From NCBI GenBank assembly GCA_963707955.1, contig OY970176.1:160001-224000 (forward strand): 64,000 nt of DNA. The letters run 5' to 3'. This DNA comes from Candidatus Bathyarchaeota archaeon (GTDB lineage: Archaea > Thermoproteota > Bathyarchaeia > Bathyarchaeales > Bathycorpusculaceae). The notes under the pieces are model-generated. The model was not told the origin of the DNA and made no database searches. It was given only the letters and a program-made list of their open reading frames with translations. The position numbers and the translations under genes were made by a program. Positions 2,816 through 60,426 of the stretch are shown here, piece after piece (position 1 is the stretch's first letter; each line of letters starts with the position of its first letter).

Positions 2816-3187
2816 TTGAAGAAACCGATCAGAGTCACAAGTCTAGAACTCGGAATCAACGACCGACTTTTGAACGTTCCGAATCTTGAACTCATCAACA
2901 AACTTGCGCGCGACAACGATACACTATTAGAGACAGATGCCGCGTTTTGGTTGTTCAAAGATAATCTTGCTTTTCGGTGCTTGAAAGAATCGGCGAAACC
3001 TCTGACGTTCCACTGTACTGATCTTCAGATTAATCCTGATTCATGCAGAGTTCGCGCGACGATCAGTGTTGAGGAAATGTTTGCTCACAGTCTCAAAAAT
3101 GAGATTCCATTGCTTGAAACTGCTTCGGAATATTACATCTGCGGTGACGTGACTCTTGTCGCGAAGAAACCGAAAGGAGGCGAGTGA
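2816..3187 (+). CDS. Hypothetical protein (may start at ATT 2765)
   Basis: Co-oriented ORF; frame open upstream to an AGGTG SD-like site at 2755. Confidence 0.6.
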   Translation: MKKPIRVTSLELGINDRLLNVPNLELINKLARDNDTLLETDAAFWLFKDNLAFRCLKESAKPLTFHCTDLQINPDSCRVRATISVEEMFAHSLKNEIPLLETASEYYICGDVTLVAKKPKGGE

Positions 3188-44093: not shown

Positions 44094-44206
44094 ACTATGC
44101 CGCCAAAATCGAAAACGCATCACCCTTCGACGCGAAGTAGAATGTTTTCAGGTTTCCAGCCTTTTTGCTAGGGCGGACTTATCGAGAGTGCCGAAAACCA
44201 GAGAAA

Positions 44207-44881
44207 TCACTTTCCAGCTTTTCCGTAAACGCGCGCGCTTGCGGTTTTTGACCTAAGGAGTTCAAGGGCAGCAGACTTTGCCCCGAGTTCCGCTCTTATC
44301 TTGTCATCTCCGCTTCCGATTATTATAACGTCGCCCTCGTTCAAACCCAGTTTTGAGAACGAAGTCAGAATATGCGGATCGCTTTTTGACAAGTCTTCGT
44401 CCGTGCCCGGCATAGCTAATCTGTTCTTGGTGAAGATTAGAGTAGTGGCTCCCTTGGCTCCGGCTACCATGGCAGCGTCTCTCTCCTCAACACCGTATTT
44501 TACGGAGTCTTTCATTCCTCTCACTCGAACTGCAACGTTGAAAGGGCCAACCGTTAAAGGCGTTGAGGGAATCTCTATTTGTTCGCTCACAAGAGTCCTC
44601 AAACGGGAAAGGAGTTTTCTTCCATCCGCAGACAACGAGATCCCTGATTTTGAAACATCAATCAACCCTTCATTCTTGAGATGCTTAACGAGAGTTCTGG
44701 TCTCACCTTCCCCCAAGTGGAGATCTTTTGAAAGCTTCAATCTGCCGACGCTCTTTTCTAGGCTGATCTCTTCCAAAGCCTTCAAAACGTGGGCCTCAGC
44801 AAACGAAGGAAAACGTCCAGGTGCGATTTTCGAGGAAACTCTGCTGACTATTTCAAGTATTTCCAATCGTGTTCTCCTCAC
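44207..44881 (-). CDS. wHTH regulator-like protein (DUF4443-like)
   Basis: GRLKLSKDLHLGEGETRTL; ERDAA...GAKGATT. Confidence 0.78.
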   Translation of the reverse strand: MRRTRLEILEIVSRVSSKIAPGRFPSFAEAHVLKALEEISLEKSVGRLKLSKDLHLGEGETRTLVKHLKNEGLIDVSKSGISLSADGRKLLSRLRTLVSEQIEIPSTPLTVGPFNVAVRVRGMKDSVKYGVEERDAAMVAGAKGATTLIFTKNRLAMPGTDEDLSKSDPHILTSFSKLGLNEGDVIIIGSGDDKIRAELGAKSAALELLRSKTASARVYGKAGK

Positions 44882-44955
44882 GTTCAGGCTGTTATATGTT
44901 GGATATAGGAATTCTTAAGTATAAGCTGGATGGATAATCTAACCAAGACGGAAAC

Positions 44956-45504
44956 ATGAACACCGTCAAGATAGCCATCATTGCGGTATTCTGCGCGATA
45001 TCAATAGGGACGGACTATGCTATGTTCAGTCTGTGGAACATCAAACTTATGGACTTTATCGTCTTCGTCGGCGGTTTCTGCTTTGGACCAGTCGTAGGCG
45101 TTTTAATTGGAGTGATTTCTTGGACAGTTTATGGTACCCTAAACCCGCAGGGATTCGTGCTGCCAGTCTTGCTCGCAACGATGTTTTCGGAAACGATATA
45201 TGGGATTGCAGGTGGCTTATTGCGGAAAGGGTTAACCGGTCTCAAAGGCGAAACGTGGAAAGCAAGCGTGTTCTTTGCTTCTGTGGGTGCACTGCTGACT
45301 CTGATCTATGACGTTATCACCAACGTTGTGTTTGGATTAACCGCTGGCTGGAACGTTGTTTTTGCAGTTGTTGTCGGTTTCATTCCCTTTGGACTCCTGC
45401 ATGAAATTAGCAACTTGGTGTTCTTCGGAGTCGGCTCAGTTCCCGTAATCTCTGCGATTAACAAGGTCGTAGGAGGTGAGAGAAACGTCGGTCCTAAAGA
45501 ATAA
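44956..45504 (+). CDS. ECF transporter S component-like membrane protein
   Basis: Five to six TM helices, FGPVVG, HEISN. Confidence 0.75.
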   Translation: MNTVKIAIIAVFCAISIGTDYAMFSLWNIKLMDFIVFVGGFCFGPVVGVLIGVISWTVYGTLNPQGFVLPVLLATMFSETIYGIAGGLLRKGLTGLKGETWKASVFFASVGALLTLIYDVITNVVFGLTAGWNVVFAVVVGFIPFGLLHEISNLVFFGVGSVPVISAINKVVGGERNVGPKE

Positions 45505-45937
45505 GTGGCAAATAGCCACTGTAGCTGTTCTATGCTGGGCATTGTCAACATCACTATTAGCAGGCTATTACTGGCTTCAGTACACTGATTTTATAAACAG
45601 AGTTGGCGGTGTGCCAATCTCCCTCAACATAGGCATAAATTACGGAAACTCCACAGTCTGGAGCAACAACACGAAAGAATTGACCGGGATGACCCTCTTC
45701 AAAGTCACAGAAGACATAACCAACGTTACGTATGACACGATGGCTGGATATGGCATTTACATAAAATCAATAAACAATGTGGCTGCTGCTGGCGTTTATG
45801 GATGGGTGTGGTGGTTATGGGGGAATAGCACAGGGTGGACGATGGGCCTCATTAGTTCAGGCGCGTATGCTGTCTCGCAAGGCGAGACATTCATGTGGTA
45901 CTATGAAAGTGGTTGGCCGCCAGCATCGCCTCCATAA
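45476..45937 (+). CDS. DUF4430-like membrane-anchored protein
   Basis: GIYIKSINNV...GWVWW...GAYAVSQGETFMWYY. Confidence 0.72.
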   Translation: MRETSVLKNKWQIATVAVLCWALSTSLLAGYYWLQYTDFINRVGGVPISLNIGINYGNSTVWSNNTKELTGMTLFKVTEDITNVTYDTMAGYGIYIKSINNVAAAGVYGWVWWLWGNSTGWTMGLISSGAYAVSQGETFMWYYESGWPPASPP

Positions 45938-46090
45938 ACGATTGAAGAAGGCAATTTGAAAAATATATTGGTGTCCATGCTATGCGCAAACCGCACCCCT
46001 TGCTCCGGGGACATAAACTTCGGTTGCTCACAGAAAACCCACGTTGGCAAAACAGAAAAAGGGGTGTGCGCAGGATATCGCAGGGTGTGT

Positions 46091-46396
46091 CGGTATCTGG
46101 TAGACGACTTGATCATTCAGTTCTGTCAGAGATTGCGGAAACAAGACTTCATTTTGAAGGGTGAAACCTATTCTACTTGCCGGAAGGGTAAGCGTGAATG
46201 CTTGAATGATTCTTTGACTTGTGTTCTAGTCAGAAGTCTTGATCAGCTGTCTCGGAGTAAGGTTTCTCTTCCTTGAATTAGAGCCGGTGAACAGCAAGAA
46301 ATGGAGACTCTGATCGATGAAGAGGCTTTGCTGTTTGCTCAGTAATTGAGGAACGAAAGGAACACGTGGGTTCCTAGAATAGTGCGCCTAACCTGA
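46091..46396 (+). pseudogene. cas1: Decayed C-terminal fragment resembling archaeal stand-alone Cas1
   Basis: RYLVDDLIIQFCQRL...KGKRECLND...LP*IRAGEQQEMETLIDEEALLFAQ*LRNERNTWVPRI; in-frame stops at 46274 and 46343. Family recognised from memory, not by search. Confidence 0.62.
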
Positions 46397-46404
46397 AAGA
46401 AAAT

Positions 46405-46423
46405 AGTGTAGATATCTCCCGAA
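46405..46423 (+). repeat. 19-bp repeat, copy A: AGTGTAGATATCTCCCGAA
   Basis: 18/19 identical to 53006-53024. Confidence 0.75.
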
Positions 46424-46636
46424 GTCCGTCTTCACATGACCGTTTTCTTCTAATAGAAAATGGGGGCAAACTGGCTTAAGAATCATGCTTCTAAACTGTT
46501 CAACGTGAAAGCGGTGAAATCAAAGAGTCAAACTGGTTTTTAAGTGTTGACAGAAGTATCTTCTACCGATTCTTATTCTGCTCGGATACTAACCAATAAC
46601 AGAGATCGATTGCAGGGCACTCTAACACCCGACTTT

Positions 46637-47386
46637 TTATTTCCATTTTGTCAGTATCTCTTCCCTGCGGAAAGTGGCTCTGCTAATGAAGAACAAAACC
46701 ACGTCGACTAGAAATAGGACTGCCGAGATGACTAGAAGGGTGAGAGCGTCGAGCGAGATGGATCCGATTTCCCCCAAGATGTATAGGCCCATGAACGGTA
46801 GCACAATCAGCCCTCCAAACTGCTGTGCTGCCCTGACGTCGGTGACCCTGGCCGAGAAGATGACATTCAGCTCAACACTGAGCAAGCATGCAAGGGGCGT
46901 GGCAAGAAGCAGAAAGACTGCCATCGTCCAGTTAGGATAGAAAAGATAGCCCAGCTGCTGGCGCGAAATTGTATCAATGAAGACCATGAAAACTGTAGCA
47001 CCCAAGAAGGTTGATGCAATCGTAGGCAGGAACGCGGCGAGGGACTTTCCCAGTAAGATCTCGCCGTCAGTCGTTGGCGTAGCCAGAAGGGGTTCCAGAC
47101 TCTTCTCCACCTTCTCGCCGACAATGCTATATGCAGCCATGCCAGTGGCCAGTGAGACCGTGCCTATCATGAAGAAAAAGAAGAACGCATTTACCAGAGG
47201 GGTCAGCTGTGCGTAGGAAACGCTTGTTGGATGCTCTTTCACGACCCACCAAATGATAGCTGGTAGGCCGAGTGAAATGCCAAGCGGAAAAGCGACCAGC
47301 GAGTAGAGGATGCTCTTCTTCTTCCTGAAAATGCTAAGGTCTTTCTTTGCAACCGTCCATACGTTCTCTAAGTCCATCTTTTTCAA
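46637..47386 (-). CDS. ABC-2 permease
   Basis: SIVGEKVEKSLEPLLATP...ILLGK. Confidence 0.9.
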   Translation of the reverse strand: MKKMDLENVWTVAKKDLSIFRKKKSILYSLVAFPLGISLGLPAIIWWVVKEHPTSVSYAQLTPLVNAFFFFFMIGTVSLATGMAAYSIVGEKVEKSLEPLLATPTTDGEILLGKSLAAFLPTIASTFLGATVFMVFIDTISRQQLGYLFYPNWTMAVFLLLATPLACLLSVELNVIFSARVTDVRAAQQFGGLIVLPFMGLYILGEIGSISLDALTLLVISAVLFLVDVVLFFISRATFRREEILTKWK

Positions 47387-48306
47387 CTCCTGACCAATTT
47401 CAAATACACATCCTCTAAAGTTGGGCTGGCCTCAGTAACGAACTGGACACGACCACCCACACCGTAAATAGCGTCCACAATGTCGGGATTCTCCTTTTCA
47501 GGATTGCTCACATTGATGACAAGTTTGTTATCCACTATCTCCATATTTCTCAGTCCAAGTTTCTTCACAGCCGCCACAATTACATCGTTAACACGTTCAA
47601 GCTGAATCACAGTTTTCCTTCCCCACAATGATTCCCTCAGCTCTTCGGGACTGCCCACCGCCAGCAGCTTGGTTTTCAATATTCCTACTCTATCGCAGAT
47701 TTTCTCCGCTTCGTCTAGAAGATGAGTGTTGAGAAAAATAGTTCTTTTTTCTTTTTTAAGCTCAAGAATAAAATCTCTCACCATTTTTGAAGCTTCTGGG
47801 TCTAAGTTTGCCGTCGGCTCGTCCAAGAACAGGACCTTAGGGTCATGAATAAGGGCACGGGCTATTGCAAGTTTTTGCTTCATCCCTTTGGAAAAGGTCC
47901 CTGCCGAGACGTTCCTCTTGTCCCAAAGCCCAAGCATCCTGAGGAAATGCTCGATTCTTTCTCTCCTCTGCTCTTCGGTAAGCTTGTATAGTCGCCCATA
48001 AAAATCGAGATTCTTATAAGCACTCAGCTCCTCATATAGACCGACGTTTTCAGGCAGCAACCCTATAATTCTTCTGACCTTCTGTGAATCAGCACGGTTT
48101 CCGATTTCATAATCACCAATCCTAGCTTTTCCACTGGTTTTGGATATCAGGCAACAAAGCATTCTGATTGTAGTGGTTTTTCCCGCACCGTTTGGTCCAA
48201 GAAAACCGAAAACCTCACCCTCATCAACATGCAAAGTCAAGTCTTCCACCGCAATGAGACTGCCAAATCTCCTAGTCAGATTTTCAGCATCAATCACTAT
48301 GGTCAC
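47383..48306 (-). CDS. ABC transporter ATP-binding protein
   Basis: GPNGAGKTT, FSKGMKQK, LDEPT. Confidence 0.92.
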   Translation of the reverse strand: MTIVIDAENLTRRFGSLIAVEDLTLHVDEGEVFGFLGPNGAGKTTTIRMLCCLISKTSGKARIGDYEIGNRADSQKVRRIIGLLPENVGLYEELSAYKNLDFYGRLYKLTEEQRRERIEHFLRMLGLWDKRNVSAGTFSKGMKQKLAIARALIHDPKVLFLDEPTANLDPEASKMVRDFILELKKEKRTIFLNTHLLDEAEKICDRVGILKTKLLAVGSPEELRESLWGRKTVIQLERVNDVIVAAVKKLGLRNMEIVDNKLVINVSNPEKENPDIVDAIYGVGGRVQFVTEASPTLEDVYLKLVRS

Positions 48307-48416
48307 CAAAATGATTAGGCTGTTGCAATGTAGTCTCAACGAATCTTAAGTGGTTATTGAGCGTTATTTTGTTTTTCGCCATTGGACAAGACCTACCGAA
48401 AAAACTACGATTTCTG

Positions 48417-48441
48417 GTTCAGCTATAACTTTTCTGCAAAG
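48417..48441. repeat. 25-bp site, copy 1: GTTCAGCTATAACTTTTCTGCAAAG
   Basis: 20/25 identical to the copy at 50066. Confidence 0.7.
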
Positions 48442-48509
48442 CCTAGGTCTGTGGGTTTGTACTTAGATTTATATGTAAACCCCCTAACAGCAATAATGAG
48501 GAGTTAAAC

Positions 48510-49055
48510 TTGAAGATACTGGGGATATGTGGTAGTCCGAGGAAGGGGAATACTGAATGGTTGATGAGAGAGTTGATGCGGGCAACCGAGAAACGTGGTG
48601 GCAAAACCGAGTTGTTTACGCTCAGAGATAGGAACATCAAGATGTGTGACGGCTGTTTAGTATGCGAAAAGACAAACACATGCCACATAAAAGATGATAT
48701 GAAGGGAATCTACGACAAGATACTGTCTGCTGACGCTGTTGTGCTTGGCTCTCCAACCTACATGGACGCTCCTACGGCGTTAGCCATGAACTTTATCCAT
48801 CGTATGTATCCTCTCTATGGCAAAATCAAAGGAAAACGATTTGCGAGTATAGTAGTGGGGCAAGTCGGTGGACAAGAAGGTATAACCTCCAGAGGAAAAG
48901 TCGAAGACTACTTTAAAGCGATTGCTGGGTTGTTCGAATTAGACCACGTAGGGTCACTAAGTGTAGCCGCTCGAGACCCTAATGACGCCTCAAAAATCAC
49001 CGACATTGCAGAACAATTCGAAAACCTTGCTACAAAAATCTTGAATCACTCATGA
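48510..49055 (+). CDS. Flavodoxin-fold iron-sulfur flavoprotein / FMN reductase
   Basis: GSPRKGNT, CDGCLVC...C, GSPTY. Confidence 0.88.
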   Translation: MKILGICGSPRKGNTEWLMRELMRATEKRGGKTELFTLRDRNIKMCDGCLVCEKTNTCHIKDDMKGIYDKILSADAVVLGSPTYMDAPTALAMNFIHRMYPLYGKIKGKRFASIVVGQVGGQEGITSRGKVEDYFKAIAGLFELDHVGSLSVAARDPNDASKITDIAEQFENLATKILNHS

Positions 49056-49075
49056 CCAATTGCTAGTCTTTGGCT

Positions 49076-49099
49076 GTTCAACTATAACTATCCGTAAAA
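49076..49099. repeat. 25-bp site, copy 2: GTTCAACTATAACTATCCGTAAAA
   Basis: Aligns with copies 1 and 3 with one gap. Confidence 0.65.
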
Positions 49100-49161
49100 T
49101 CAAGAACTGGCTTAGAAGGACAGATAGAGGATGCTTCTATCGTTTTTTCGATATTTCTAAA

Positions 49162-49486
49162 CTAGCCAACCGTATTCCATATTGACTCCGTAAATGTTGT
49201 GTAGTCTATCAGCTTGTGGAATTCCGTGTGAATCTCCATCATCGCTTTGTATTTCATCATTTTTTGCATTAACCTTATCCAGCTCTTCTAGGCTCCTGCA
49301 TTCCCACATTTCAACATATGAACCAGCTACTCCACCGTATTCTCGCTGGAAGAGCCGCCAAGATTTCAGTCCTTCAAAAGCTTTCGGGTTCTCCTTTTTG
49401 AATTTGAGGAATCTTTTGATCAGTATCTGAAATTCTGTTCGCTCTTCGTATTTGACCACGTATGTCAAGACAAAGACGATATTCAT
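49162..49486 (-). CDS. NIPSNAP/dimeric alpha-beta barrel-like protein, extra A near 49262
   Basis: GSYVEMWECRSLEEL; corrected frame NAKMMKYKAMMEIHTEFHKLID...SIW. Confidence 0.6.
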
Positions 49487-49490
49487 GTTT

Positions 49491-50036
49491 CTATTCGCCT
49501 TCAACGATTTTTGTCAGTATTTTTGGTTCTTTCCATTCTTCCCTGAGAATACTATAGAGATAGGCATCTCTCAGTTCTCCTCTCATGAAGAAGTTCTTAC
49601 GAAGTGTACCTTCCTTCTTGAAGCCAACTTTTTCTAAGACCCTCTGAGAGGCTATATTTCTCGGGTCAGTATGGGCTTGAATACGTGCTATGTCTTTAGA
49701 AAGAAACAAGTAATCTACCATAATCTTGACAGCTTCAGAGCAGTAGCCCTTCCCTCTCTCACTCGGCACCAAACTATAGCCTATTTCCAGTTGCTTACCT
49801 GCAATGTGTAGGACGTAAAAATGGGCTATGAAACCAGTTTTGCTTCCGTTTTTTTTCTCAATGATAAATGGCTCCAGTTCAAGAGGGTTCTCAAGCATCT
49901 TTTCTGCATCTGTTCTGGACATCTGATGCAGGGGATTATATTCACCAAAGACGTCAGGCTTGTTTACCCATTCTGCAAAAAGTGGCAAATCCTCTTTCTC
50001 CATAACCCTCAGATTCACTAGCATACCTTCAAGCAC
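49491..50036 (-). CDS. RimJ/RimL-type GNAT acetyltransferase
   Basis: EIGY...ERGKGY, NIASQRVLEKVGFKKEG. Confidence 0.9.
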   Translation of the reverse strand: MLEGMLVNLRVMEKEDLPLFAEWVNKPDVFGEYNPLHQMSRTDAEKMLENPLELEPFIIEKKNGSKTGFIAHFYVLHIAGKQLEIGYSLVPSERGKGYCSEAVKIMVDYLFLSKDIARIQAHTDPRNIASQRVLEKVGFKKEGTLRKNFFMRGELRDAYLYSILREEWKEPKILTKIVEGE

Positions 50037-50065
50037 TTTGAACACCAATCCACCTGATTGGGTTG

Positions 50066-50090
50066 TTTCGGCTATGACTTTTCCGCAAAA
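50066..50090. repeat. 25-bp site, copy 3: TTTCGGCTATGACTTTTCCGCAAAA
   Basis: 20/25 identical to copy 1. Confidence 0.7.
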
Positions 50091-50244
50091 TCCCTTTTTT
50101 CTTTTTTGCAAAGATAAATTGAGCCAAACAACTGCGCCACAGACATTCCGTGAAGTCTCCTAAAAATGCGCGTGCTCTTATTTTTGAGAACGATAGATTG
50201 AAATCGCACCTTTAATCATTTAGAATTGTTGGACGTGGTGTAAG

Positions 50245-52947
50245 TTGAATTCTAAGCTTCCGGCCGAGCCAATTTTGGTCGGCAGGGACCAAGAAATCAA
50301 ACAGTTTACACAATACTTTGACTCTGCCATGAGGGGAAAAGGAGCCACCATATTCGCTTGTGGTGAGGCGGGAGTCGGAAAGACAAGACTGGTCAACGAA
50401 TTTCTGAACCAAGCAAAGAGAAAAGGAGCGAAAATTCTTCAGGGCTATTGCATGAGCGAGGTGGACATACCCTACTTTCCTTTTACGGAAGCATTTAACA
50501 CCTACATGTCAGCATTGAGCGATGAAAAGGCGAAATCCTCCGTGACAAAGCAGCTCGGAATTACAGGATGGCTGAGAGGGTCTGAAATCACACGTGAAGC
50601 GAAAGCAAGTGAACTCTTTTCAACTCCAGAAATAGAACGCGACAGAACGTTTGAGGCAGTGGCAAGAGTTCTCCTTCAGCTGTCCAATCAAGAACCATTA
50701 ATCCTGTTTCTGGATGACCTGCAGTGGGCAGACCACCTAAGCTTAGCTATACTTCACTACTTGGCAAGAAAGTGTAGAAACTCTCGGCTTCTCATCATCG
50801 GCACCTATAGACCAGAAGACCTTGTTCACACTAAAGAAGAGAAACTCCATCCACTAGAGGAAATCATGTTTTCAATGAGTCGAGAAGACCTGTTGGTTAA
50901 AATGGAGTTGAAATGCTTAAGGCGAAACGATTTCCCAGACTTTTTACGGTCAATCTTTCACTCTTCATTGGATGACGAATTCGTAGAAAAGCTGTATGAG
51001 GAAACTGAAGGCAACCCTTTTTTCGCGCTTGAAACGCTAAACCTCCTCGTAGAAGAAGGTTTCCTCTCAGAAAAAAAGGGTCGCTGGATGCTAATGGCTC
51101 CAACAGAAAAAATCGGAATACCTTCAAAGGTTCACGATGTCATCATTCGGAGAATCGCGAGACTCGAACGCGAAGAAAGAAAACTGTTGGACCTCGCCGC
51201 TGTCTGCGGTCATTCCTTCACTCCAGACACCCTAAGCAGAACCTTAGCCTTAGACATAGCCGATGTTCTGCAAGAACTGATGGAGATTGAACAGAGACAC
51301 CGACTAATACGCTCCACTGACACAACATTTGAATTCACACACCAAAAAATAAGAGAAGTCATATACTCAAACTTACCAGGCGAGTTAAGGAGAGTATACC
51401 ATCTCAAAACGGCAAATTGCCTCGAACAAGTCCTCACCGAAAAAACTTCAGACGGTTACATAGCTGAAATAGCCCTTCACTACGTCGAAGGAGGAGCTCC
51501 AGAGAAAGCGTTCGAATACCTTATCAAACTGGGCGAAAAGGCAGTGAACATCTCTGCCAACGCGCAGGCAATAGAACATCTGGAAAAGGCATTAGAAGCC
51601 ACACAGAAAAATATGAGCCTTGCCACAAACGAAAACCTTGCTAAAATCTACAAACTCAAAGGCAGAGCTTGGCTGAGTCATGGAGAAATGGCAAAAGCTA
51701 GCAACGATTTCAATTGGCTGCTACAAAATGCTACTTCCATCGGTGATGAATCAATGATTGCAGAAGCGCACTATTGGCTAGGTTGTGCTCTAACATGGCT
51801 AGGAAAAATAGATGAGGCTAAGCTACATCTTACAAGAGCATTAGAAATCGCGCGAAAGACGGGCAATAAACACGTAGAAGCCGGAAGTCTCCTTCACCTG
51901 GTCGAATCACTCTTTGTATACGCAGACACCATGGAAGAAGCTCACATGCAAATTGAAGAGTCGCTTAGAATATGTAGAGAGATAACTGACAGAGTCCTCG
52001 AAGCCGGGTGCCTCGCTTACCTCGGATTCTACTATGACTGGAAAGGCGAGTTCAATCGAGCCAAAGAAACCATCAATGAGGCGTTGGCGTTAGCTGAGAA
52101 AATGGACGACAATTACGGAAAAATGTGGGCATTATTGCTTTCGGGCATGGTTCACGCTGGTGAAGGGGAATACAATGATGCCATTTCGACCTTACAAAGA
52201 TGTCTCCAACTCTCCCGAGATTGGGGCATTGTTTTTTTCGTTCCGCGAGCCCTCAATGTCCTCGGTTGGATTTATCATGACTTAGAAAACATCGAATTTG
52301 CAACTAAATACAACAACGAAGGACTAAGAATTACCAGAACGCACCAAGAGAGTATGGGCTTATCCGGAGTGCAGCTAGCTTGTTTAGTAAATCTAGGAAT
52401 GGACTATCTACACAAGAACGATTATGGAAATGCAAAGAAGTACTTCCAAGAAGCAAACAGCGTGATTCATTTACATCCAATGGCTGAGTGGCGTTTCGAA
52501 ACTCGTATACTTCTAGGTCTCGGAGAAATATCACTCGCTGAGGGCGATTATTCACAAGCACTAAAATTCAGTGAAGACTCTTTAGCCATATCTGAAAAGG
52601 CAGGAGCCAAAAAATACATATCCAAAAGTTTGAAGTTAAAAGCTGAAACACTCGCAAAAATCGGCAACTCCGATGAAGCAATCGAACTGATGCAGAAAGC
52701 CTTAAAGGCGGCACAAGAGGTGGGCAACCCGCCCTTGCTTTGGCAAATACACTATAGCCTCGGTCTTTTACTTGAAAAAAGCGGAAGCTCACAGGCCAAT
52801 TACCACTATGCCGAAGCAATAACCCTCATAGAAGCAACAGCATCAAAAGTCAACGACCCATCCCTCAAAAACTCTCTCTTGAATGCCTCACTCACAAGTG
52901 CAATACGTGACGCTTATACCGAAACAAAACCGACTTCAGACACTTGA
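50245..52947 (+). CDS. STAND-like AAA ATPase with C-terminal TPR repeats
   Basis: LVGRDQE, GEAGVGKT, LFLDDLQWAD, GNPFF, FTHQKIRE, many TPRs. Confidence 0.88.
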   Translation: MNSKLPAEPILVGRDQEIKQFTQYFDSAMRGKGATIFACGEAGVGKTRLVNEFLNQAKRKGAKILQGYCMSEVDIPYFPFTEAFNTYMSALSDEKAKSSVTKQLGITGWLRGSEITREAKASELFSTPEIERDRTFEAVARVLLQLSNQEPLILFLDDLQWADHLSLAILHYLARKCRNSRLLIIGTYRPEDLVHTKEEKLHPLEEIMFSMSREDLLVKMELKCLRRNDFPDFLRSIFHSSLDDEFVEKLYEETEGNPFFALETLNLLVEEGFLSEKKGRWMLMAPTEKIGIPSKVHDVIIRRIARLEREERKLLDLAAVCGHSFTPDTLSRTLALDIADVLQELMEIEQRHRLIRSTDTTFEFTHQKIREVIYSNLPGELRRVYHLKTANCLEQVLTEKTSDGYIAEIALHYVEGGAPEKAFEYLIKLGEKAVNISANAQAIEHLEKALEATQKNMSLATNENLAKIYKLKGRAWLSHGEMAKASNDFNWLLQNATSIGDESMIAEAHYWLGCALTWLGKIDEAKLHLTRALEIARKTGNKHVEAGSLLHLVESLFVYADTMEEAHMQIEESLRICREITDRVLEAGCLAYLGFYYDWKGEFNRAKETINEALALAEKMDDNYGKMWALLLSGMVHAGEGEYNDAISTLQRCLQLSRDWGIVFFVPRALNVLGWIYHDLENIEFATKYNNEGLRITRTHQESMGLSGVQLACLVNLGMDYLHKNDYGNAKKYFQEANSVIHLHPMAEWRFETRILLGLGEISLAEGDYSQALKFSEDSLAISEKAGAKKYISKSLKLKAETLAKIGNSDEAIELMQKALKAAQEVGNPPLLWQIHYSLGLLLEKSGSSQANYHYAEAITLIEATASKVNDPSLKNSLLNASLTSAIRDAYTETKPTSDT

Positions 52948-52973
52948 GGAAAAGCGACCCCAAATCTGCAGGG

Positions 52974-53000
52974 TGGTGCGGGGGATGGGATTTGAACCCA
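52974..53000 (-). pseudogene. Orphan tRNA 3' fragment, probably tRNA-Leu (att/target relic)
   Basis: Minus strand TGGGTTCAAATCCCATCCCCCGCACCA = T arm, acceptor 3' strand and ACCA; no 5' half adjacent. Confidence 0.8.
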
Positions 53001-53005
53001 GCACA

Positions 53006-53024
53006 AGTGGAGATATCTCCCGAA
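53006..53024 (+). repeat. 19-bp repeat, copy B: AGTGGAGATATCTCCCGAA
   Basis: Contains the perfect palindrome GGAGATATCTCC; 18/19 identical to 46405-46423. Confidence 0.75.
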
Positions 53025-53136
53025 ATGTCGCTTTTGACTCGACATTTTAGACATCTCCGATATACCATGAGCGACAAGACCAATATAAGGAATATGTCGA
53101 AAGCGTAGAACAATAAAACTGTAGCTAGTCCATGCT

Positions 53137-53682
53137 TCATGTGGTTCTTGTCAGTATCTTTGGTTCTTTCCATTCTTCTCTGAGGATGCTGTAGAGGTAG
53201 CTGTCTCTCCTCACTCCATTTACAGATTTTCTTATCGTTCCTTCCCTCGTAAAGCCAACTTTCTCTAGCACTCTTTGCGAACCTGTATTCTTTATAGAGG
53301 TTGATGCTTGTATTCTGCTTACATCCATGGAAAGGAACAGATAATCCACCATTAGTTGAGCTGCTTCAGTGCCGTAGCCCTTACCTCTTTCGCTTTGAAC
53401 CACCATGTAACCTATTTCCAACAGTTTCGCTCCACCTATATACGAATTGTAGTAGGTTACATTCCCGATTCTAGTTCCATCTTTCTTCTCAACTATGAAC
53501 CCTCTTAATCCATCAGGATTGCTGCGGTTTCTTTCAAACATCTTCTCCATATCTGTTCTTGAATCCTGTGTAGGGAAGGGCAAATACTCCCCTGTGAATT
53601 TTGGATCGTTCCACCATTCCGTAAGCAGTGGCAAGTCCTCTTTCTCCGTGACTCTGAGATTCACTTTCTTGCCTTCAAGCAA
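53137..53682 (-). CDS. RimJ/RimL-type GNAT, paralog of 49491-50036
   Basis: Shared VNLRV.EKEDLPL and YLYSILREEWKEPKILT. Confidence 0.9.
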   Translation of the reverse strand: MLEGKKVNLRVTEKEDLPLLTEWWNDPKFTGEYLPFPTQDSRTDMEKMFERNRSNPDGLRGFIVEKKDGTRIGNVTYYNSYIGGAKLLEIGYMVVQSERGKGYGTEAAQLMVDYLFLSMDVSRIQASTSIKNTGSQRVLEKVGFTREGTIRKSVNGVRRDSYLYSILREEWKEPKILTRTT

Positions 53683-53728
53683 CTTAACTCACCAACCCGC
53701 ACAGTTACTAGGGGTTCACCTATAACTC

Positions 53729-54100
53729 TTAATGTTTGAATAGGTATTCCATCAATATTTCATCGGTGTACGTTCCGTCTGAGAACTTGATGCCTCTTGT
53801 CAGCTTCCCAGCCTGTTTGAAACCACATTTCTCATAGACGTGAAAGGCTCTCTTGTTGCTTGCGTAGACTGAGAGCTGGAGAACTTCAACTCCATGCTGA
53901 TTGGCAATCTCGACAAACTCTTTCGTCAATAGCGTTCCAAGTCCCAGATTACGAAAGTTCTTGCTGATGAATATGCCGTAATGGGCAACGTGCGCATGGT
54001 TAGACCTCTGACCCTCAGGGTGCATTTCAACGTTGGCGCTCCCCACAACTTTGCCGTCAACTCTTGCGATCAGGAAAAAGTCCTGTTTTAGTATTCCTGT
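53729..54100 (-). pseudogene. 5'-truncated GNAT acetyltransferase
   Basis: FLIARVDGKVVG...FRNLGLG...NKRAFHVYEKCGF; upstream frame is closed. Confidence 0.7.
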
Positions 54101-54356
54101 TTTAGCCGTCTGTTCAAACCACGCGAGTTGATCTTTCGAGGTATACGGCTCGCGCGCGCGGATTTTATAGGGTCTTGGGATAAATAAGGATCAATGGGGA
54201 TTTTCTAGGGGAGAAGAATAAAGGGAGAAAGAAGGGATCATTTCTTCTTGTGCTCAAACTCCCAGCCTCAGGCGCGCACACACACACGCACAAGGAGTGA
54301 GTGTGAGAATGAAGAAAGAAAAAGCCAACGCGCTAGCCAATTTTCCGCAAAACCGG

Positions 54357-57300
54357 TCATCTTTCTCCTTTGAGCCAGCCTTTGATTCCCAATTCCTTGA
54401 CCGTTATGCTAACGGGTTCGGGCTCATAAAATCTGTATTTGCCGTTTTCATCGAGATAGGATATTCTCGGTTTTAGCTGGAAAACACCTTGATTCTTCGG
54501 TTTGAGAGTGATCTTTATCTCTTCTGGTTTCAGTGCATCAAGCCGTTTTCCCTTCATGTTCAGGTAGCTGTCTTCTACACGGTAGGTTTCGGGTTTGTCT
54601 ATCAGTTCGAAGCCTTCAGGGATGATTTCTGCGAGTTTGATCAGAACTGCCGGTCTTCTTCCAGCGTTAACGAGTTCTATTTCTATTTTGAGGTCTTCGC
54701 CGATTTTCAGTTCTCTTTGGCGAACTATCAAGTTTGCTTGGATATCGGCACTTTCGAATCTTGCTGACCCAACCGCTGATTCGCCAGTTGGGGCAGGAGC
54801 GGCAAATGATGTGGTTGTCGAAACGATCGATGGTGTGTGCAACACTTCTGCAATGGACATAGCTAATTCTCTTTCTTCTCTCACCTTTTCTAGCAGTCTT
54901 AACACCTGTTCCCTTTTCTCCGGATGTTCCGCCTTCATGAATGAGCCAGCCGATGTTTGCAGAACTTTTTCAGCAATGGCGTATAGTCTGGTCTTGTTCT
55001 CAGGATCCTTCTCTTCTTTGGCGTTATTCATGTGCACGTAAGCGTCAAAGAGCAGTCCTGTAGCTTTAGCATATTCTGAGGCGCTTTGGAAGCCAGCTTT
55101 CACATAGTATTTGGCAGCACTTTCTAGGTGCTGTATGGCAACCTTGTGCAATGGTTCGTCTCCTGTGTCGGCGAATTTTGCTCCCTCCTCCAATGCCTTG
55201 CAGAAGCGACTATGTCCCAACGCCAAGAGGCCCGTTGCTTCCGTGTTACTCTCTTTGCTCACCTGTTCAAAGAGCATGGACGCCTCCAAGTACAGTTCTG
55301 GTGAAGCTTTGGCATCAGCCAACATCATTTTTTGCCAAGCCTTGGAAAGTGCTATGATTAGCTTGAATTCTCTGCGTTCTTGTTCGGAATCTAACGCTTG
55401 ACTTATCTTTTCGAAAGTCTCAGCTGCCACACCGTATTTTTCTGAGCTGGAATAATGGTCGCCTTTCTTGTCGAGGATTTTTGCTTCTTCAATCATGATT
55501 CTGGCCTCGCAGTATTCGCGCCGAATGTCCGTTGCTTTGAGCATGTTTTTTGCCATCTGTTTCTCGTCTTGGTCTTCAATTTTGTTGACCTGTGCTTGAA
55601 GCGATATTTTGCTTTCTTCGAAGAGACTAGCCGCTTGTTCGAAGGCCTTGATAGAATCATCGCCCTGTTCCTTTCGGCTCAGTTCTTCCGCGTTCTCGAC
55701 TTGAGCCCATGCAAAATAGTTGGGCTCAAGATAATTCCACTGTTTCAGTGACTTATGCAGTTCTGCGGCTTTCTCGAAGTGTTCCTTTGCCAAGCCATAT
55801 TCCTGTCTCTCATGGTGATGGCGTGCCTTCTCAATCTCAGGCCAGGCCAACATGTAAGACGCATGATCCTGGTAGAGGCTCTTGAGCTGCGGAATCTTTT
55901 CCACCGCATCCTTGAAATTGTTCGAGGCAAGCCCAAAGGTTTCAGCAGCTTCCAAATGCTCACCCAAAACGTCGAAGGTTGTAGCAGCTTTCCAATAGCA
56001 CTCCGCAACCCGACTTCTTAAATTGATTTTCTCATACGATTCGACCGCTTCACCGAAAGCTTTCACCGCTCTACTCAAACACTCCCTGTCATTCGTAATC
56101 TCGTAAAGACGACCAAGCCACACGCCTACGTCATATTGGCCTAAACCTAAGATAAAGTGCATCGCGGGCGCGTTCGTCAAGGATGCGTCCATGGTCATTA
56201 ACCTCAACGCGTTTTCGTAGTCAAGTACTGCTTCTTGGACTATTTTCTTTTCTTCTGGATTGTCCTTTGCCAACTCTGCAAGTCTATACCTGATCCCAGC
56301 CAGCGTACTTTGCATGATACCGCGACTCCAGTAGCCGAAGGGGTGGATTTGTTCCGTCATTCTGACGGTTTCTTCCCTGTGTTTCATTGCCTCCTGCAGA
56401 CTTGCCTTTTTCTCCTGTGTCCTCTTCTCAAGATCAGCCATGAACGCTAACGCCATGCTGGAATTGTGATGCTCGAGAATTATGGCTTCGATGTATCCTG
56501 AAGACTCTGCTCGTTTCAGTCCCTCTTTATTAGCTGCGATTGCCTTTTCAAGCAAGGCTTGCTTTTTCATCACATCTGTTTCCCAATACGCCAACCAAAG
56601 GAGATGCTCGGCGTCAACGTCCTCGACCCACAACGCACCCGCCCGCGGACTGACGAAGGAGATTGGGAAATAATGTCGCTTCGCATCTTCAGCGTACTGC
56701 AAGGCTTTCTCATTAAGGGCCAGTCTTTCATCAGGGGCTTCGATTGTCCATGTCTTCCAGAGAGTATGGAATGCTAACCAATCTAGCGCACAGCCAATAT
56801 TGAATTTGTCCTTTGTTTTCCTGCCATACTCCAGGGCTTCTCCAAGTTTCTTTAGAGCTTCATCGGTACCCACCCCGCCCAATAAGACATCTTGAGCCCC
56901 AAAAATAGGCCAAGTCACCTCACTCAAGGCCACATTTTCACATGTCTCCTTGGCCCTCGCCCAGTAGTCACGAACTTTCTGATATCCTGTTTCCTTCTCA
57001 TCAGCGTCCAAGAAATTGTCCTCGAACACTCCCAGATAGAAGGCTCTTCTTGCATATGCCCTCCCAAGTTCAATGGGATCTTCAGTTGGAGAAAGAAACT
57101 CTATCGTTTGCTCTCCATGTTCCACCGCTTCTCTAATCAATTTCTCTCGGGCTTGAAAATCCCAATCAAGACAGAAGGCAAAAACAACACTGCCAGAAAG
57201 CTGGTTGTACGTTCTCCCATATTCCCACCCTTCACTGGTTTCCTTGAAAGCGGCTAACGCTTCCTTTGTCAATCTCCAGCACTCGTCAATCATCTTCTTC

Positions 57301-57641
57301 TTTTCTTTTGCCTCCGGGGCAAGCCAATAGCCTATGCAAGCAATCACGGCATTACAACGCGATGTCCTCGCCGTCTTCACGGGCCCATTCAGTTTTCCAT
57401 AGAACTCGCCAGCCTTCTCATAGGCAACAGTAGATTGACGCAGCCTTTCTCTAAACTCGTCCTTACTTTCAGCCTGAAACGCAAAATGGTAGAATGCATA
57501 TCCCACCCTCTCATTAATCTCTCCCTTCTTCGAGAAATCATCTTGGGACAGCAGATTCAGCGCTTTCTCATATAATTCGGCGGCTCCAGACCAATCATAT
57601 TCCTTCTCCAACTGTTCTGCCTGATGCAGAATCTCCTCCAC
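54357..57641 (-). CDS. Large TPR/alpha-solenoid protein with C-terminal Ig-like domain
   Basis: About 950 helical residues, then IELVNAG...IIPEGFEL...YLDENGK. Confidence 0.82.
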   Translation of the reverse strand: MEEILHQAEQLEKEYDWSGAAELYEKALNLLSQDDFSKKGEINERVGYAFYHFAFQAESKDEFRERLRQSTVAYEKAGEFYGKLNGPVKTARTSRCNAVIACIGYWLAPEAKEKKKMIDECWRLTKEALAAFKETSEGWEYGRTYNQLSGSVVFAFCLDWDFQAREKLIREAVEHGEQTIEFLSPTEDPIELGRAYARRAFYLGVFEDNFLDADEKETGYQKVRDYWARAKETCENVALSEVTWPIFGAQDVLLGGVGTDEALKKLGEALEYGRKTKDKFNIGCALDWLAFHTLWKTWTIEAPDERLALNEKALQYAEDAKRHYFPISFVSPRAGALWVEDVDAEHLLWLAYWETDVMKKQALLEKAIAANKEGLKRAESSGYIEAIILEHHNSSMALAFMADLEKRTQEKKASLQEAMKHREETVRMTEQIHPFGYWSRGIMQSTLAGIRYRLAELAKDNPEEKKIVQEAVLDYENALRLMTMDASLTNAPAMHFILGLGQYDVGVWLGRLYEITNDRECLSRAVKAFGEAVESYEKINLRSRVAECYWKAATTFDVLGEHLEAAETFGLASNNFKDAVEKIPQLKSLYQDHASYMLAWPEIEKARHHHERQEYGLAKEHFEKAAELHKSLKQWNYLEPNYFAWAQVENAEELSRKEQGDDSIKAFEQAASLFEESKISLQAQVNKIEDQDEKQMAKNMLKATDIRREYCEARIMIEEAKILDKKGDHYSSSEKYGVAAETFEKISQALDSEQERREFKLIIALSKAWQKMMLADAKASPELYLEASMLFEQVSKESNTEATGLLALGHSRFCKALEEGAKFADTGDEPLHKVAIQHLESAAKYYVKAGFQSASEYAKATGLLFDAYVHMNNAKEEKDPENKTRLYAIAEKVLQTSAGSFMKAEHPEKREQVLRLLEKVREERELAMSIAEVLHTPSIVSTTTSFAAPAPTGESAVGSARFESADIQANLIVRQRELKIGEDLKIEIELVNAGRRPAVLIKLAEIIPEGFELIDKPETYRVEDSYLNMKGKRLDALKPEEIKITLKPKNQGVFQLKPRISYLDENGKYRFYEPEPVSITVKELGIKGWLKGER

Positions 57642-57955
57642 ACTTAACGCCCCTGATAACAGTAAACCATTAGAAGGTTAATAACAAGCATCTGAAAAGT
57701 CTTTTCATGAACGAAGCACTCGATTAATACGGGCTGATTTTCAGTTTTGCGGATGGTTTTGCAACGCAGTTTAAGAGCGGGCGCTGGTTGAAGACTGCGC
57801 AATTTTCAATTTGGTCAATGGACAAATCCAGAGTAGCCTACTAGCAGAATATAGGCTGGAGAACTGCACAGGTTCGGGATACTTTTCGCTTATTGGGCGC
57901 GTGCTACGCTTTGCTGGAAAACCTTTTATCAAAAACCGTTGCATTTGTCTAAGAG

Positions 57956-58831
57956 GTGGAGAACTTGACTGAAATCAAGAAAATCGCAGTTCTTGGTGCG
58001 GGTTTGATGGGGCATGGGATAGCGCAAGTGGCGGCTCAAGTCGGCAAGTATGAAGTGAATCTTCGAGATGTTGAACAGCGTTTCGTCGATAGCGGTGTGG
58101 GCATGATAAGGGAGAGCCTGCAGCGGTTCGTGAAGAAGGGCCAGCTCACTGAAGCGGACATGAGTGCGACGTTGGCAAGGATTCATCCAACGCTCGACTT
58201 GAAAGGGGCTGTTGCCAACGCAGACTTGATAATTGAAGCGGTTCCCGAGAACTTGGAGTTGAAGAAGGCAACGTTTCGCGAAGTGGACAGTTACGCTCCG
58301 AGCCACGCGATAATCGCTTCGAACACCTCCTCTGTCAGCATCACAGAGATGGCCTCAGCGACCAAACGTCCAGAAATGGTCTGTGGGATGCATTTCTTCA
58401 ACCCGCCGCAGCTCATGAAGCTCATTGAGGTGATCAGAGGTGCCAAAACTTCAGACGCGACCATCGAGACGATCTTGGCTGTTGCCCACAAGATGGAGAA
58501 GGAAACGGTGCTCGTGAAGAAGGACAGCCCAGGCTTCATAGTAAACAGGATACTCATCCCTGCGCTGAACGAAGCAGTAGCCCTCTGCTGGGAAGGAGTT
58601 GCGGACAGGGACGACATCGACAAGGCCGTAAAGCTTGGACTAAACTGGCCCATGGGCCCTCTCATGCTGTTGGATTACATAGGTTCAGACACGACGCTTG
58701 CTATTGCCGAGGTGCTCACGAAAGAACTGGATCCGAAGTTCCACCCAACCACGGGACTGAAGCAGATGGCTAAAGCCCAGCTTCTGGGCAGAAAGACGGG
58801 CAAGGGCTTTTACGACTGGACCCAAAAGTAG
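57956..58831 (+). CDS. hbd: 3-hydroxyacyl(butyryl)-CoA dehydrogenase
   Basis: GAGLMGHG, EAVPE, SNTSS, GMHFFNP, PGFIVNR, PMGP. Confidence 0.93.
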   Translation: MENLTEIKKIAVLGAGLMGHGIAQVAAQVGKYEVNLRDVEQRFVDSGVGMIRESLQRFVKKGQLTEADMSATLARIHPTLDLKGAVANADLIIEAVPENLELKKATFREVDSYAPSHAIIASNTSSVSITEMASATKRPEMVCGMHFFNPPQLMKLIEVIRGAKTSDATIETILAVAHKMEKETVLVKKDSPGFIVNRILIPALNEAVALCWEGVADRDDIDKAVKLGLNWPMGPLMLLDYIGSDTTLAIAEVLTKELDPKFHPTTGLKQMAKAQLLGRKTGKGFYDWTQK

Positions 58832-58849
58832 ACGCGGGAGTTATGACGG

Positions 58850-59632
58850 ATGGAATTCAAGTCTATAATCTATGAAAAGAGCGAGGGTGTAGCCACAATC
58901 ACTTTGAATCGGCCTGAGGCGTTGAACGTCTTCAGCAAGGAAGTGGTGGAAGAAATACTTCGGGCACTGGAAGACGTTAAGAATGATGAAAACGTGCGCG
59001 TTGTTGTCCTGACCGGAGCAGGCGAAAAAGCGTTCTCGGCCGGCGCTGACATAAAAGCCATGGCGGGAATGACTGCCTTGAAGGGCAGAGAGCTCTCACT
59101 CATGGGCGAAAACCTGTGCCTAGCCTTGGAAAACCTGGAGAAACCAGTCGTTGCAGCGATCAACGGTTACGCTTTGGGCGGAGGCTTGGAAGTTGCCATG
59201 GCGTGCGACCTCCGCATAGCCTCTGAAAACGCTCGCATGGGACAAACAGAAGTAAACTTCGGCTTAATTCCAGGCTGGGGTGGAACTCAGCGCCTCACAC
59301 GTCTGGTGGGCATGACGAAGGCTAAAGAGCTTGTTTTCACTGGAAAGATGCTTGACGCGAGAACCGCAGAGCAGTTGGGATTAATAAACATGGTAACCCC
59401 TGTAGACAAGTTCAGGGAAACCGTTCGACAGTTTGCCCTCGAGCTAGCATCCAAGCCTCCGGTTGCGCTTAGAGTGGCAAAGGCCTTGATCAACAAGGGC
59501 GCAAACATAAGCCTCGATTCGGCCCTAGCGCTAGAGCGAGAAGGCTTCGGCGTCGTTGCCTCATCGGAAGACTTGAAGGAAGGCGTCTCAGCGTTTGCAG
59601 AGAAAAGAAAGCCTGTCTTCAAGGGCAAATGA
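58850..59632 (+). CDS. crt: Enoyl-CoA hydratase (crotonase)
   Basis: AFSAGADI, ALGGGLE, QTEVNFGLIPGWGGTQRL. Confidence 0.92.
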   Translation: MEFKSIIYEKSEGVATITLNRPEALNVFSKEVVEEILRALEDVKNDENVRVVVLTGAGEKAFSAGADIKAMAGMTALKGRELSLMGENLCLALENLEKPVVAAINGYALGGGLEVAMACDLRIASENARMGQTEVNFGLIPGWGGTQRLTRLVGMTKAKELVFTGKMLDARTAEQLGLINMVTPVDKFRETVRQFALELASKPPVALRVAKALINKGANISLDSALALEREGFGVVASSEDLKEGVSAFAEKRKPVFKGK

Positions 59633-59771
59633 TTTCCCTCTTCAGTTCTTTCCTCCTCGAAAGACCTTTTTTGAAGCCAAGTTCTTGAGATTTTACTCAA
59701 AAATGATATATGAATGTGTACTGAAACCTAGCAAAATGGTTACTTGCTAGTGAACAGTTGAGTGATGACCC

Positions 59772-60426
59772 ATGAAGCTAGTCATCTTTGGTCCTCCAGG
59801 TTCGGGGAAGGGCACGTATGCCTCGCGCTTACAGACAAGGCTAGGCATTGACATCATTGCAACAGGAGACATTCTTCGAGAGATCATGAGAGAGGATACC
59901 CCGTTGGGAAGGAAAGTCAAAGGTTTCGTAGAGAAGGGTCAGCTGGTTCCCGACGACGTAGTTATTCAAGTCCTTAAACAACGCTTGGACAAGTCTTCCG
60001 GCGAGAAAGGTTTCATCTTGGATGGCTTCCCGCGGACTATTGAGCAGGCCAAGGCTTTGGAGAAGTTTGTCAAGATCGATGGTGTCATTCAGCTGACGGT
60101 GCCTGACTGGATAATCATAGAGCGCTTGTCAAGCCGCAGAATATGCAAGAGACTGTGGAGAAGTGTATAACATACGCTTCTTGAAGCCCAAAGTCGAGGG
60201 GATATGTGACAAGTGCAGAGGGCAACTTTACCAGCGTTCTGACGACATGCCGGATGTGATCAAGGGCCGTATAGGCGTCTATGAACGTCAGACTGAACCC
60301 ATATTGCAGTACTATAAAGAGAAAGGGGTTCCGTTTGCAGAGTTTAAGTGTGAGTCCCTTGAACTGCCGCCTGAAGTGGCCGTTGATAGCATCCTTAAGC
60401 AGATAAGACAGTTGAAGCTAGCCTGA
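59772..60426 (+). CDS. adk: Adenylate kinase with Zn LID, split by a 1-nt insertion near 60150
   Basis: GPPGSGKGT, LDGFPRT, RRIC..CGEVYN...CDKC...QRSDD. Confidence 0.92.

Follow-up and report, generated by a model that had tools for sequence, protein, structure and literature searches.

A 64,000-nucleotide stretch of the genome of Candidatus Bathyarchaeota archaeon (here the window; G000:C1:160001-224000) contains a 12-kb strain-specific island of accessory genes, in which gene-sized units are bounded by copies of a short linker at which genes seem to have been swapped. This cassette-like architecture and the breakpoints linked to it are real and unusual. The linker most plausibly has two roles, those of a portable promoter-terminator and of a substrate for recombination. 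We hold with moderate confidence that the island is built of promoter-bearing cassettes shuffled by recombination between linkers and that a Cas1 module in the same island is separate debris. Positions are those of the window unless a genome or contig is named. The genome studied, G000, is a single 2.35-Mb contig, which was compared with 10 other genomes of its genus, G001 being the closest relative, and with 30 genomes of other genera. Most of the relatives are short-read, multi-contig metagenome-assembled genomes (MAGs).

The extent of the island is evident from relatives. A peat metagenome sequenced in another study contains a 6045-nt contig whose flanks are ~95% identical to those of the window and in which position 45965 is joined to position 57962, with 140 other letters between them. 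The core genes on the two sides (42564-44093 and 57956-58831) are only ~148 bp apart in G003, G005, G006, and G008. The empty contig and the adjacent core genes of these congeners thus place the cassettes within a strain-specific segment of 11,996 bp. The same two core genes are separated by a different 6.5 kb in G001. Core-flank identity to the window is 72-77% for G003, G008, and G009 and 89-94% for G001 and G007.

The evidence for exchange at the linker comes from the places where similarity between genomes begins and ends. The block 48415-49140, which comprises linker site a, an FMN reductase gene, and site b, matches G003:C202 529-1252 at 90% identity, and the flanks of the two are unrelated. 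Similarity starts exactly at the GGTTCAGC edge of site a and stops ~45 nt past site b; the left neighbor of the block is an ABC gene in G000 versus a GNAT acetyltransferase gene in G003. A GNAT block (53143-53694) is 95% identical to its counterpart in G008:C13, where the core flanks are ~74% identical, and similarity is lost inside the site. Overall, cassettes reach 90-98% identity in genomes that agree at only 72-77% in their core flanks. In a set of 18 blocks shared across genomes (identity of 85% or more, length of 250 nt or more), 29 of the 69 ends fell within 12 nt of a linker and 40 within 50 nt, compared with 1.1% and 3.0%, respectively, for random positions. The proposal in an earlier note on this DNA that cargo breakpoints would fall in a 25-bp site is supported by these block ends, but the borders of the 12-kb segment (45966 and 57961) coincide with neither the site nor a 19-bp repeat described below.

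Contigs from the metagenomes of two other studies attach the sites to other neighbors. The joints, whose short sides measure 22-35 nt, are 53682>48416, 53682>50070, 50090>49508, 48440>49101, and 50090>53136. The first of these is found in several contigs with differing letters in the 5' untranslated region (UTR). Position 50090 is joined directly to 53136 or 49508 via the terminator part of the linker, and one X7 metagenome contig skips 50091-53135. The joint 50090>53136 shows that the STAND gene, a tRNA-Leu fragment, and a repeat element (type B, below) have been inserted into one linker, separating its promoter part from its terminator part. As the earlier note proposed, gene-sized units bounded by a short site do occur in differing combinations across genomes and metagenome contigs.

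The linker is ~28-60 bp long. Read on the minus strand it consists of a T-run, CCAGTTTTTGG, which is a predicted terminator, followed by a transcription factor B recognition element (BRE) and TATA sequence, TTTTGCGGAAAAGTTATAGC; transcripts would be predicted to start 20-30 nt downstream of GTTATAGC on the minus strand and to end in the T-runs. The linker resembles the CCGAAAGC-TATA pattern upstream of tRNA genes in G000. Both the BRE-TATA sequence and its placement, 20-60 nt upstream of start codons in a fixed orientation, are those of an archaeal promoter, and the linker is predicted to have promoter and terminator activity. The open reading frame (ORF) of the ABC pair begins 82 nt past site a, which has the promoter orientation relative to it, and a GNAT ORF (49491-50111) starts 22 nt past site c. 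The ORFs faced by 66 linker copies from G000 and 31 loci of relatives were compared with those at 3000 random places. An ORF of at least 50 aa lies within 130 nt of 56 of the 66 linkers, versus 62% of random places, and in a hand count an ORF of at least 100 aa starts 10-60 nt downstream, in one orientation, of about 39 of the 66, versus 22%. When four linker strands were folded as DNA, z-scores ranged from +1.16 to -0.94, which indicates no single-strand fold, and an Rfam E-value scan of 44000-60000 gave 0 matches.

The site is genus-specific. The sequence GCTATAACTTTTCCGCAAAA, with at most two mismatches, is present in 9 of the 10 other genomes of the genus (1-15 copies each) and in 4 of the 30 genomes outside it (1-2 copies each); the reversed control gave 0-1. 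The earlier note had reasoned that the cassette idea would fail if the motif were a genome-wide promoter. The BRE/TATA sequence is indeed promoter-like, but G000 has about 12-14 site copies in its 2.35 Mb, and all of them fall into four clusters, one in the window and the others at 1.12 Mb, 2.03 Mb, and 2.24 Mb. Across these separate clusters a single kind of linker stands ahead of ABC, methyltransferase, HD, and GNAT genes. Cargo ORFs of 80 aa or more number 49 and form 23 clusters, the largest of which, with 20 ORFs, is that of RimJ-like GNATs. The GNAT copies have their 5' UTR and first codons in common as well, and for this reason the linker is most simply regarded as an intergenic region of the GNAT family.

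Six copies of the 25-bp site had been listed for the window. Two, a and c, are solid: a site 20-mer with at most three mismatches was found twice versus 0.00 expected. Three more, b, d, and e, stand as decayed or partial copies. Sites b and d are supported by alignment to intact copies in other genomes; the 13-mer class to which site e belongs was found 6 times versus 3.3 expected, which is not above chance. The inverted sixth copy (f, about 57744-57765), which was to mark the far border, shares only ~9 nt with the site, a resemblance not above chance, and was rejected; the real border is at 57961.

These results suggest how the arrays may have formed. In its ancestral state the linker probably separated the genes of a tandem RimJ-like GNAT acetyltransferase family. 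The 10-15 near-identical linker copies per genome would permit recombination to excise, insert, and swap gene-plus-linker units. The likeliest route would be homologous recombination of the Campbell type, with a circle that bears a single linker. Genes unrelated to one another, among them those for an ABC exporter, FMN reductase, HD hydrolase, and methyltransferase, would in this way come to be driven by one kind of promoter. The tRNA-Leu fragment, the Cas1 relic, and the elements headed by the 19-bp palindrome are probably left over from a different mobile module, one with a stand-alone Cas1 and many copies, which settles in islands that the cassettes also occupy.

Cas1 is probably a bystander, only a neighbor of the cassettes. 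We infer this because the Cas1 copies in G000 are all partial or broken and the intact Cas1 genes of G001 are on contigs that lack the linker. The Cas1-like relic reported earlier was confirmed. It aligns with residues 242-307 of an intact 347-aa congener Cas1 at 41% identity (E 4e-16), and the last 44 aa match too; covering residues ~242-347 and containing two stops, it is not a full-length Cas1 with catalytic motifs. The family in intact relatives is PF01867/TIGR00287, with the intact G001 homolog scoring 149 bits against a cut-off of 71.7. There are 5 Pfam matches to Cas1 in G000, every one partial or broken, and 12 places that encode the last 44 Cas1 residues, the pattern of 5'-truncated copies. 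The named relatives of the G000 Cas1 are Candidatus Bathyarchaeia MAGs. The two intact G001 genes keep the E/H/D/E positions aligned to solved Cas1, with a weaker alignment to casposase. No intact Cas1 adjoined an array in any genome searched. Catalysis by Cas1 or by a tyrosine recombinase, the two enzymes that the earlier note had put forward for integration, is not supported. No tyrosine recombinase was found in or near the island (of 9 PF00589 matches genome-wide, the nearest is at G000 156,923, ~49 kb away), and at 34 site-bearing loci no recombinase family recurs and no gene family except GNAT recurs widely.

None of four Cas1 neighbors in G001 and three in L046 matched PADLOC or NCBIfam families, and Pfam gave a sub-threshold RecX_HTH2 match for one of the four G001 neighbors and nothing else. 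Three of the G001 neighbor genes are also present in another genus. A 316-aa neighbor resembles virus-dominated protein clusters (Atlas feature score of 0.97-0.98, a lead only).

The 19-bp repeat had been described as tied to both the Cas1 relic and the tRNA-Leu fragment. Its two copies in the window stand (2 matches versus 0.00 expected in 100 shuffles). A true tRNA-like flank is present at only 1 of its 8 copies in G000. The repeat is a palindrome that heads elements of 75-115 nt belonging to a few classes. Copies of the type A element that are 87-97% identical occur in G003, G005, G007, and elsewhere in G000. The type B element is 96% identical to a copy in G009:C20, with flanks that differ on both sides, and its minus strand folds into a 10+8-bp hairpin (z -2.08). 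On the opposite side of the palindrome are Cas1 3' ends or tRNA-3'-like pieces, two of the latter with CCA. Within the genus the palindrome sits 10-25 nt after the Cas1 stop, in the intact G001 gene and the relics; in other genera the site and the 19-bp repeat are both missing around the Cas1 homologs.

The tRNA-Leu 3' fragment is as originally described: positions 52973-53000 match genuine tRNA-Leu genes at 27 of 28 nt. ARAGORN and Rfam called no tRNA at 52973-53003. No orphan tRNA-Leu 5' half was found in G000, where a matching 5' acceptor and D-arm occur in just four Leu-type genes, all of them complete. A split or permuted tRNA with the palindrome as a trans-splicing helix was also considered and was rejected, given the lack of orphan 5' halves and the single true tRNA-like flank among the G000 repeat copies. 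The tRNA genes of G000 number 26 without and 43 with intron search, so that many are intron-bearing. With intron search, ARAGORN mislabels some intron-bearing tRNAs (a Leu(TAG)-type gene, for example, is called Pro) and fails to call several expected isoacceptors, including Met, Phe, and Tyr; examples of such trouble are G000 1126018-1126135 and 1526977 (minus strand), among others.

Other observations concern the surroundings of Cas1. Decayed pieces of the Cas1 module, mostly its 3' end, are found in G000 at 77-84 kb, 393 kb, 863 kb, 2026-2035 kb, and 2258-2296 kb, and at 227778-228074, just beyond the window end; 2.23-2.30 Mb is especially rich in them. An IS240-type DDE transposase gene (L006 4368-5273; G000 2028367-2029272) lies between a Cas1 relic and the GNAT array at 2.03 Mb. 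Beside an intact Cas1 module in L021 (G001:C28, 12207-15598) are genes for a proteasome-like protein and for a ThiF plus prokaryotic E2 protein, a G001-only set with the appearance of a ubiquitin-like conjugation system. Another promoter-like repeat that is conserved, GGGTAAAGTTTTATCCC, has arms GGGTTTGGG and CCCAAACCC and occurs in 30 copies in G000 (at most two mismatches; reversed control 0), including those at 2258305, 2033877, 864021, and 1671046. By our own count it lies within 2.5 kb of 8 of ~13 Cas1-fragment loci, mostly downstream of the Cas1 3' end, and 5-6 copies surround intact Cas1 genes of other Bathyarchaeia genera (L044, L046). Synteny between G000 and G001 breaks inside one copy of GGGTAAAGTTTTATCCC.

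Several points weigh against shuffling by recombination between linkers. Ten of the 66 linker copies, several of them intact, face no ORF, which a plain promoter is insufficient to explain. The blocks in the breakpoint count are mostly GNAT paralogs and are not independent, and template-switching by assemblers at repeats of the length of the linker could mimic cassette exchange. Homologous recombination also leaves the first acquisition of a linker by new genes unexplained. Furthermore, 11 of the 28 copies of the 19-bp repeat in the genus are within 10 kb of a linker, versus ~7% estimated by chance, and in all 12 cases where the contig of a repeat copy has a linker no more than 20 kb away, repeat and linker share one orientation. 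This enrichment and co-orientation show that the position of the Cas1-linked element with respect to the arrays is not random. Two arrays (G000 2.03 Mb; G009:C18) have inverted Cas1 relics on both sides. The co-occurrence of Cas1 with the motifs that the earlier note expected is partly borne out, in that the 19-bp repeats lie near sites in the same orientation, but the contigs with intact Cas1 have no sites. The association of Cas1 and its repeat with the sites is real but loose, and no recombinase recurs at site loci. The only argument for a role of Cas1 is co-location.

One alternative involves no mobility at all. The site would be the shared promoter and operator of a small stress or detoxification regulon, accompanied by a duplicated GNAT family, and the mosaics would come from paralogy and assembly switching. 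A 12-nt near-palindrome in the site (TTTTGC/GGAAAA), typical of the site of a dimeric regulator and next to the BRE, would fit this explanation, as would the dominance of GNATs among the cargo (20 of 49 ORFs), the multi-contig state of most relatives, and the 30 copies of GGGTAAAGTTTTATCCC, which show that promoter-like repeats are common in the lineage. However, we regard it as unlikely, since the identical stretch is 28-60 nt long, takes in positions that have no evident role, and ends at the same sharp edge in unrelated contexts. Orphan and half sites are present, further combinations are seen in the contigs of the two other studies, and one linker heads four kinds of gene in four clusters of a genome that is a single contig. 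It is also conceivable, but quite improbable, that the cassettes are captured by a dedicated system, much as the earlier note envisaged, with the Cas1 module or another enzyme integrating gene-plus-site circles at the site or the 19-bp palindrome and so building arrays in the manner of repeat duplication during CRISPR adaptation. We are similarly doubtful of a gene capture distinct from that of integrons in which promoter-bearing single-gene circles would enter the ~28-bp site through an activity linked to the stand-alone Cas1 module and the palindrome; Cas1 would then be inserting entire genes in place of spacers or casposons. The position of the palindrome just after the Cas1 stop in intact gene and relics alike, the enrichment and co-orientation of the repeat elements near arrays, the two arrays bracketed by inverted relics, and the E/H/D/E residues retained in intact relatives all point toward dedicated capture, and the FMN reductase unit between two site copies is what site-by-site insertion predicts. 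Yet such capture is difficult to reconcile with a genome that has four arrays and no intact Cas1, with the lack of an array-adjacent intact Cas1 in any genome searched, and with the absence of both motifs around Cas1 homologs of other genera. The site is that of a promoter in both sequence and placement, and neither motif lies at a border of the 12-kb segment.

In our estimation there is only a slim chance that the segment is the decayed remainder of an integrative plasmid or virus once inserted in a tRNA-Leu gene, with the 19-bp repeats as att remnants and the cargo brought by the element. Two direct repeat copies lie 6.6 kb apart, one of them abutting the tRNA 3' fragment with CCA, as might be expected of such an element; G003:C111 has a different tRNA 3' end beside the repeat, and the resemblance of the 316-aa Cas1 neighbor to virus-dominated clusters is a lead in the same direction. 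However, there is no integrase in or near the island and no adjacent intact tRNA-Leu, the segment borders at 45966 and 57961 are away from the repeats, and the cargo units have independent relatives at other loci. An empty site with an intact tRNA-Leu at the island position was not found in any of the 10 congeners examined.

Archaeal integrative elements that target tRNA genes have a T-arm-to-CCA fragment beside a conserved element end; in contrast to these, the island has no integrase, intact target tRNA, or matching second fragment. The Correia elements of Neisseria are short dispersed repeats that supply promoters at gene boundaries. Unlike them, the linker shows no terminal inverted repeats or target duplication and lies mainly inside tandem arrays.

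Integrons and clusters of attC sites lacking integrases (CALINs), including archaeal integrons, are characterized by IntI, folded attC sites, and a single Pc promoter (Ghaly et al. 2022, PMC9668308). The island resembles them in its co-oriented cassettes, each an ORF with one site, in the short recurring site and the unrelated accessory cargo, and in units common to several genomes. An integron was nevertheless rejected, because no IntI is adjacent and the linkers lack an attC-like fold. In further contrast to the integrons of that source (PMC9668308), the site is conserved in sequence rather than structure, each unit has its own predicted promoter instead of a single Pc, and the system is genus-specific.

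Casposons (Krupovic et al. 2014, PMC4046053) combine a stand-alone Cas1 with PolB, terminal inverted repeats (TIR), a target site duplication (TSD), and a 4-7-nt overlap with an intact tRNA gene. Common to them and the Cas1 module described here are a stand-alone Cas1 in multiple copies, its location in islands, and a tRNA 3' end nearby; the differences are that no PolB is adjacent here and that the tRNA piece is an internal 31-nt fragment. A casposon was rejected: PF03175 gave no match above the cut-off, and PF00136 matches (540, 834, and 1172 kb) are at least 27 kb from any Cas1 fragment. A search for TIR with a 14-15-bp TSD covered the 25 longest pairs, and no inverted pair in that set lies at the ends of the segment or of the relic; the 19-bp copies are direct repeats situated away from the borders. 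A CRISPR module was rejected as well, with 0 matches to Cas2 (PF09827) in G000 and a 20-mer spacing scan that returned protein-coding repeats only and no array. Cas1-solo group 1 of Methanomicrobiales, reported in PMC4046053 as being without the full set of catalytic residues, is similar in having Cas1 outside CRISPR loci and without PolB. It differs in that the intact Bathyarchaeia relatives align through the catalytic motifs and that Cas1 in this lineage is multi-copy and decaying.

If linker shuffling occurs as proposed, an uncultured, globally abundant archaeal class would have a simple way to exchange genes as modules with little need for dedicated enzymes. Because every unit brings its own promoter, it would amount to a natural "plug-and-express" design. 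The multi-copy stand-alone Cas1 module, being without PolB, Cas2, or an array, widens the known contexts of Cas1 and merits study in its own right. The motif sequences allow peat and sediment metagenomes to be mined for cassette content.

Features of the island, in window coordinates
Feature	Position	Strand	Basis and remarks
Strain-specific segment of variable island, 11,996 bp	45966..57961	.	Between two core genes
Cas1 relic, last ~105 residues, two in-frame stops, catalytic part absent	46022..46393	+	Alignment to congener Cas1
19-bp palindromic repeat copy 1 (46406-46423, 1 mismatch) heading ~75-nt type A element	46406..46479	+	
ABC-2 permease and ABC ATPase pair	46637..48339	-	Pfam; transcribed away from site a
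Site a, BRE/TATA-like linker	48415..48445	-	20-mer 48422-48441, 2 mismatches
FMN reductase (flavoprotein) cassette	48510..49055	+	Pfam; between sites a and b
Site b, decayed linker including AACTGGCTT terminator part	49072..49115 (about)	-	Aligned to 1-mismatch copy in G003
115-aa gene without family and RimJ-like GNAT (Acetyltransf_3, 49491-50111), headed by site c	49157..50111	-	Pfam
Site c, linker	50064..50092	-	20-mer 50071-50090, 1 mismatch
STAND NTPase (AAA_16) with TPR repeats	50245..52947	+	Pfam; inserted between promoter and terminator parts of linker
tRNA-Leu 3' fragment, 31 nt (T-arm, acceptor 3' strand, CCA), pseudo-fragment	52973..53003	-	Sequence match
19-bp repeat copy 2 (53007-53024, 0 mismatches) heading ~115-nt type B hairpin element	53005..53119	+	
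GNAT cassette (Acetyltransf_3)	53137..53682	-	Pfam
Site d, TATA half only	53711..53726	-	Alignment to G008
5'-truncated GNAT fragment, ends in CGCGCGCGCG run (54151-54160)	53729..54160	-	Pfam match (53729-54046) and sequence
Site e, perfect TTTTCCGCAAAAC half and mutated TATA half	54331..54357	-	13-nt half-site 54341-54353
1094-aa repeat protein	54357..57641	-	Pfam: sub-threshold matches only

Pfam agrees with the original annotation of the cargo as an ABC pair, a flavoprotein (now identified as FMN reductase), GNATs, and a STAND-TPR protein. The designation of the 1094-aa protein as TPR-Ig is less secure, as its Pfam matches were all below threshold. This protein is a member of a large paralog family of the genus, with dozens of DNA matches of ~70% both elsewhere in G000 and in 9 of its 10 congeners.

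Throughout the genome the palindrome AGCGCGCGCT recurs at high frequency, and it occurs in the window at 44230-44238, 54151-54160, and 7 more places. GCGCGCGC has 464 occurrences versus 28 expected. The 10-mer of the AGCGCGCGCT palindrome is present 114 times in G000, 7-92 times in congeners, and 0-9 times outside the genus (reversed control, 0-4). The palindrome is found at the ends of Cas1 fragments and, in G001 and G010, exactly on the island borders. It is reminiscent of cyanobacterial HIP1.

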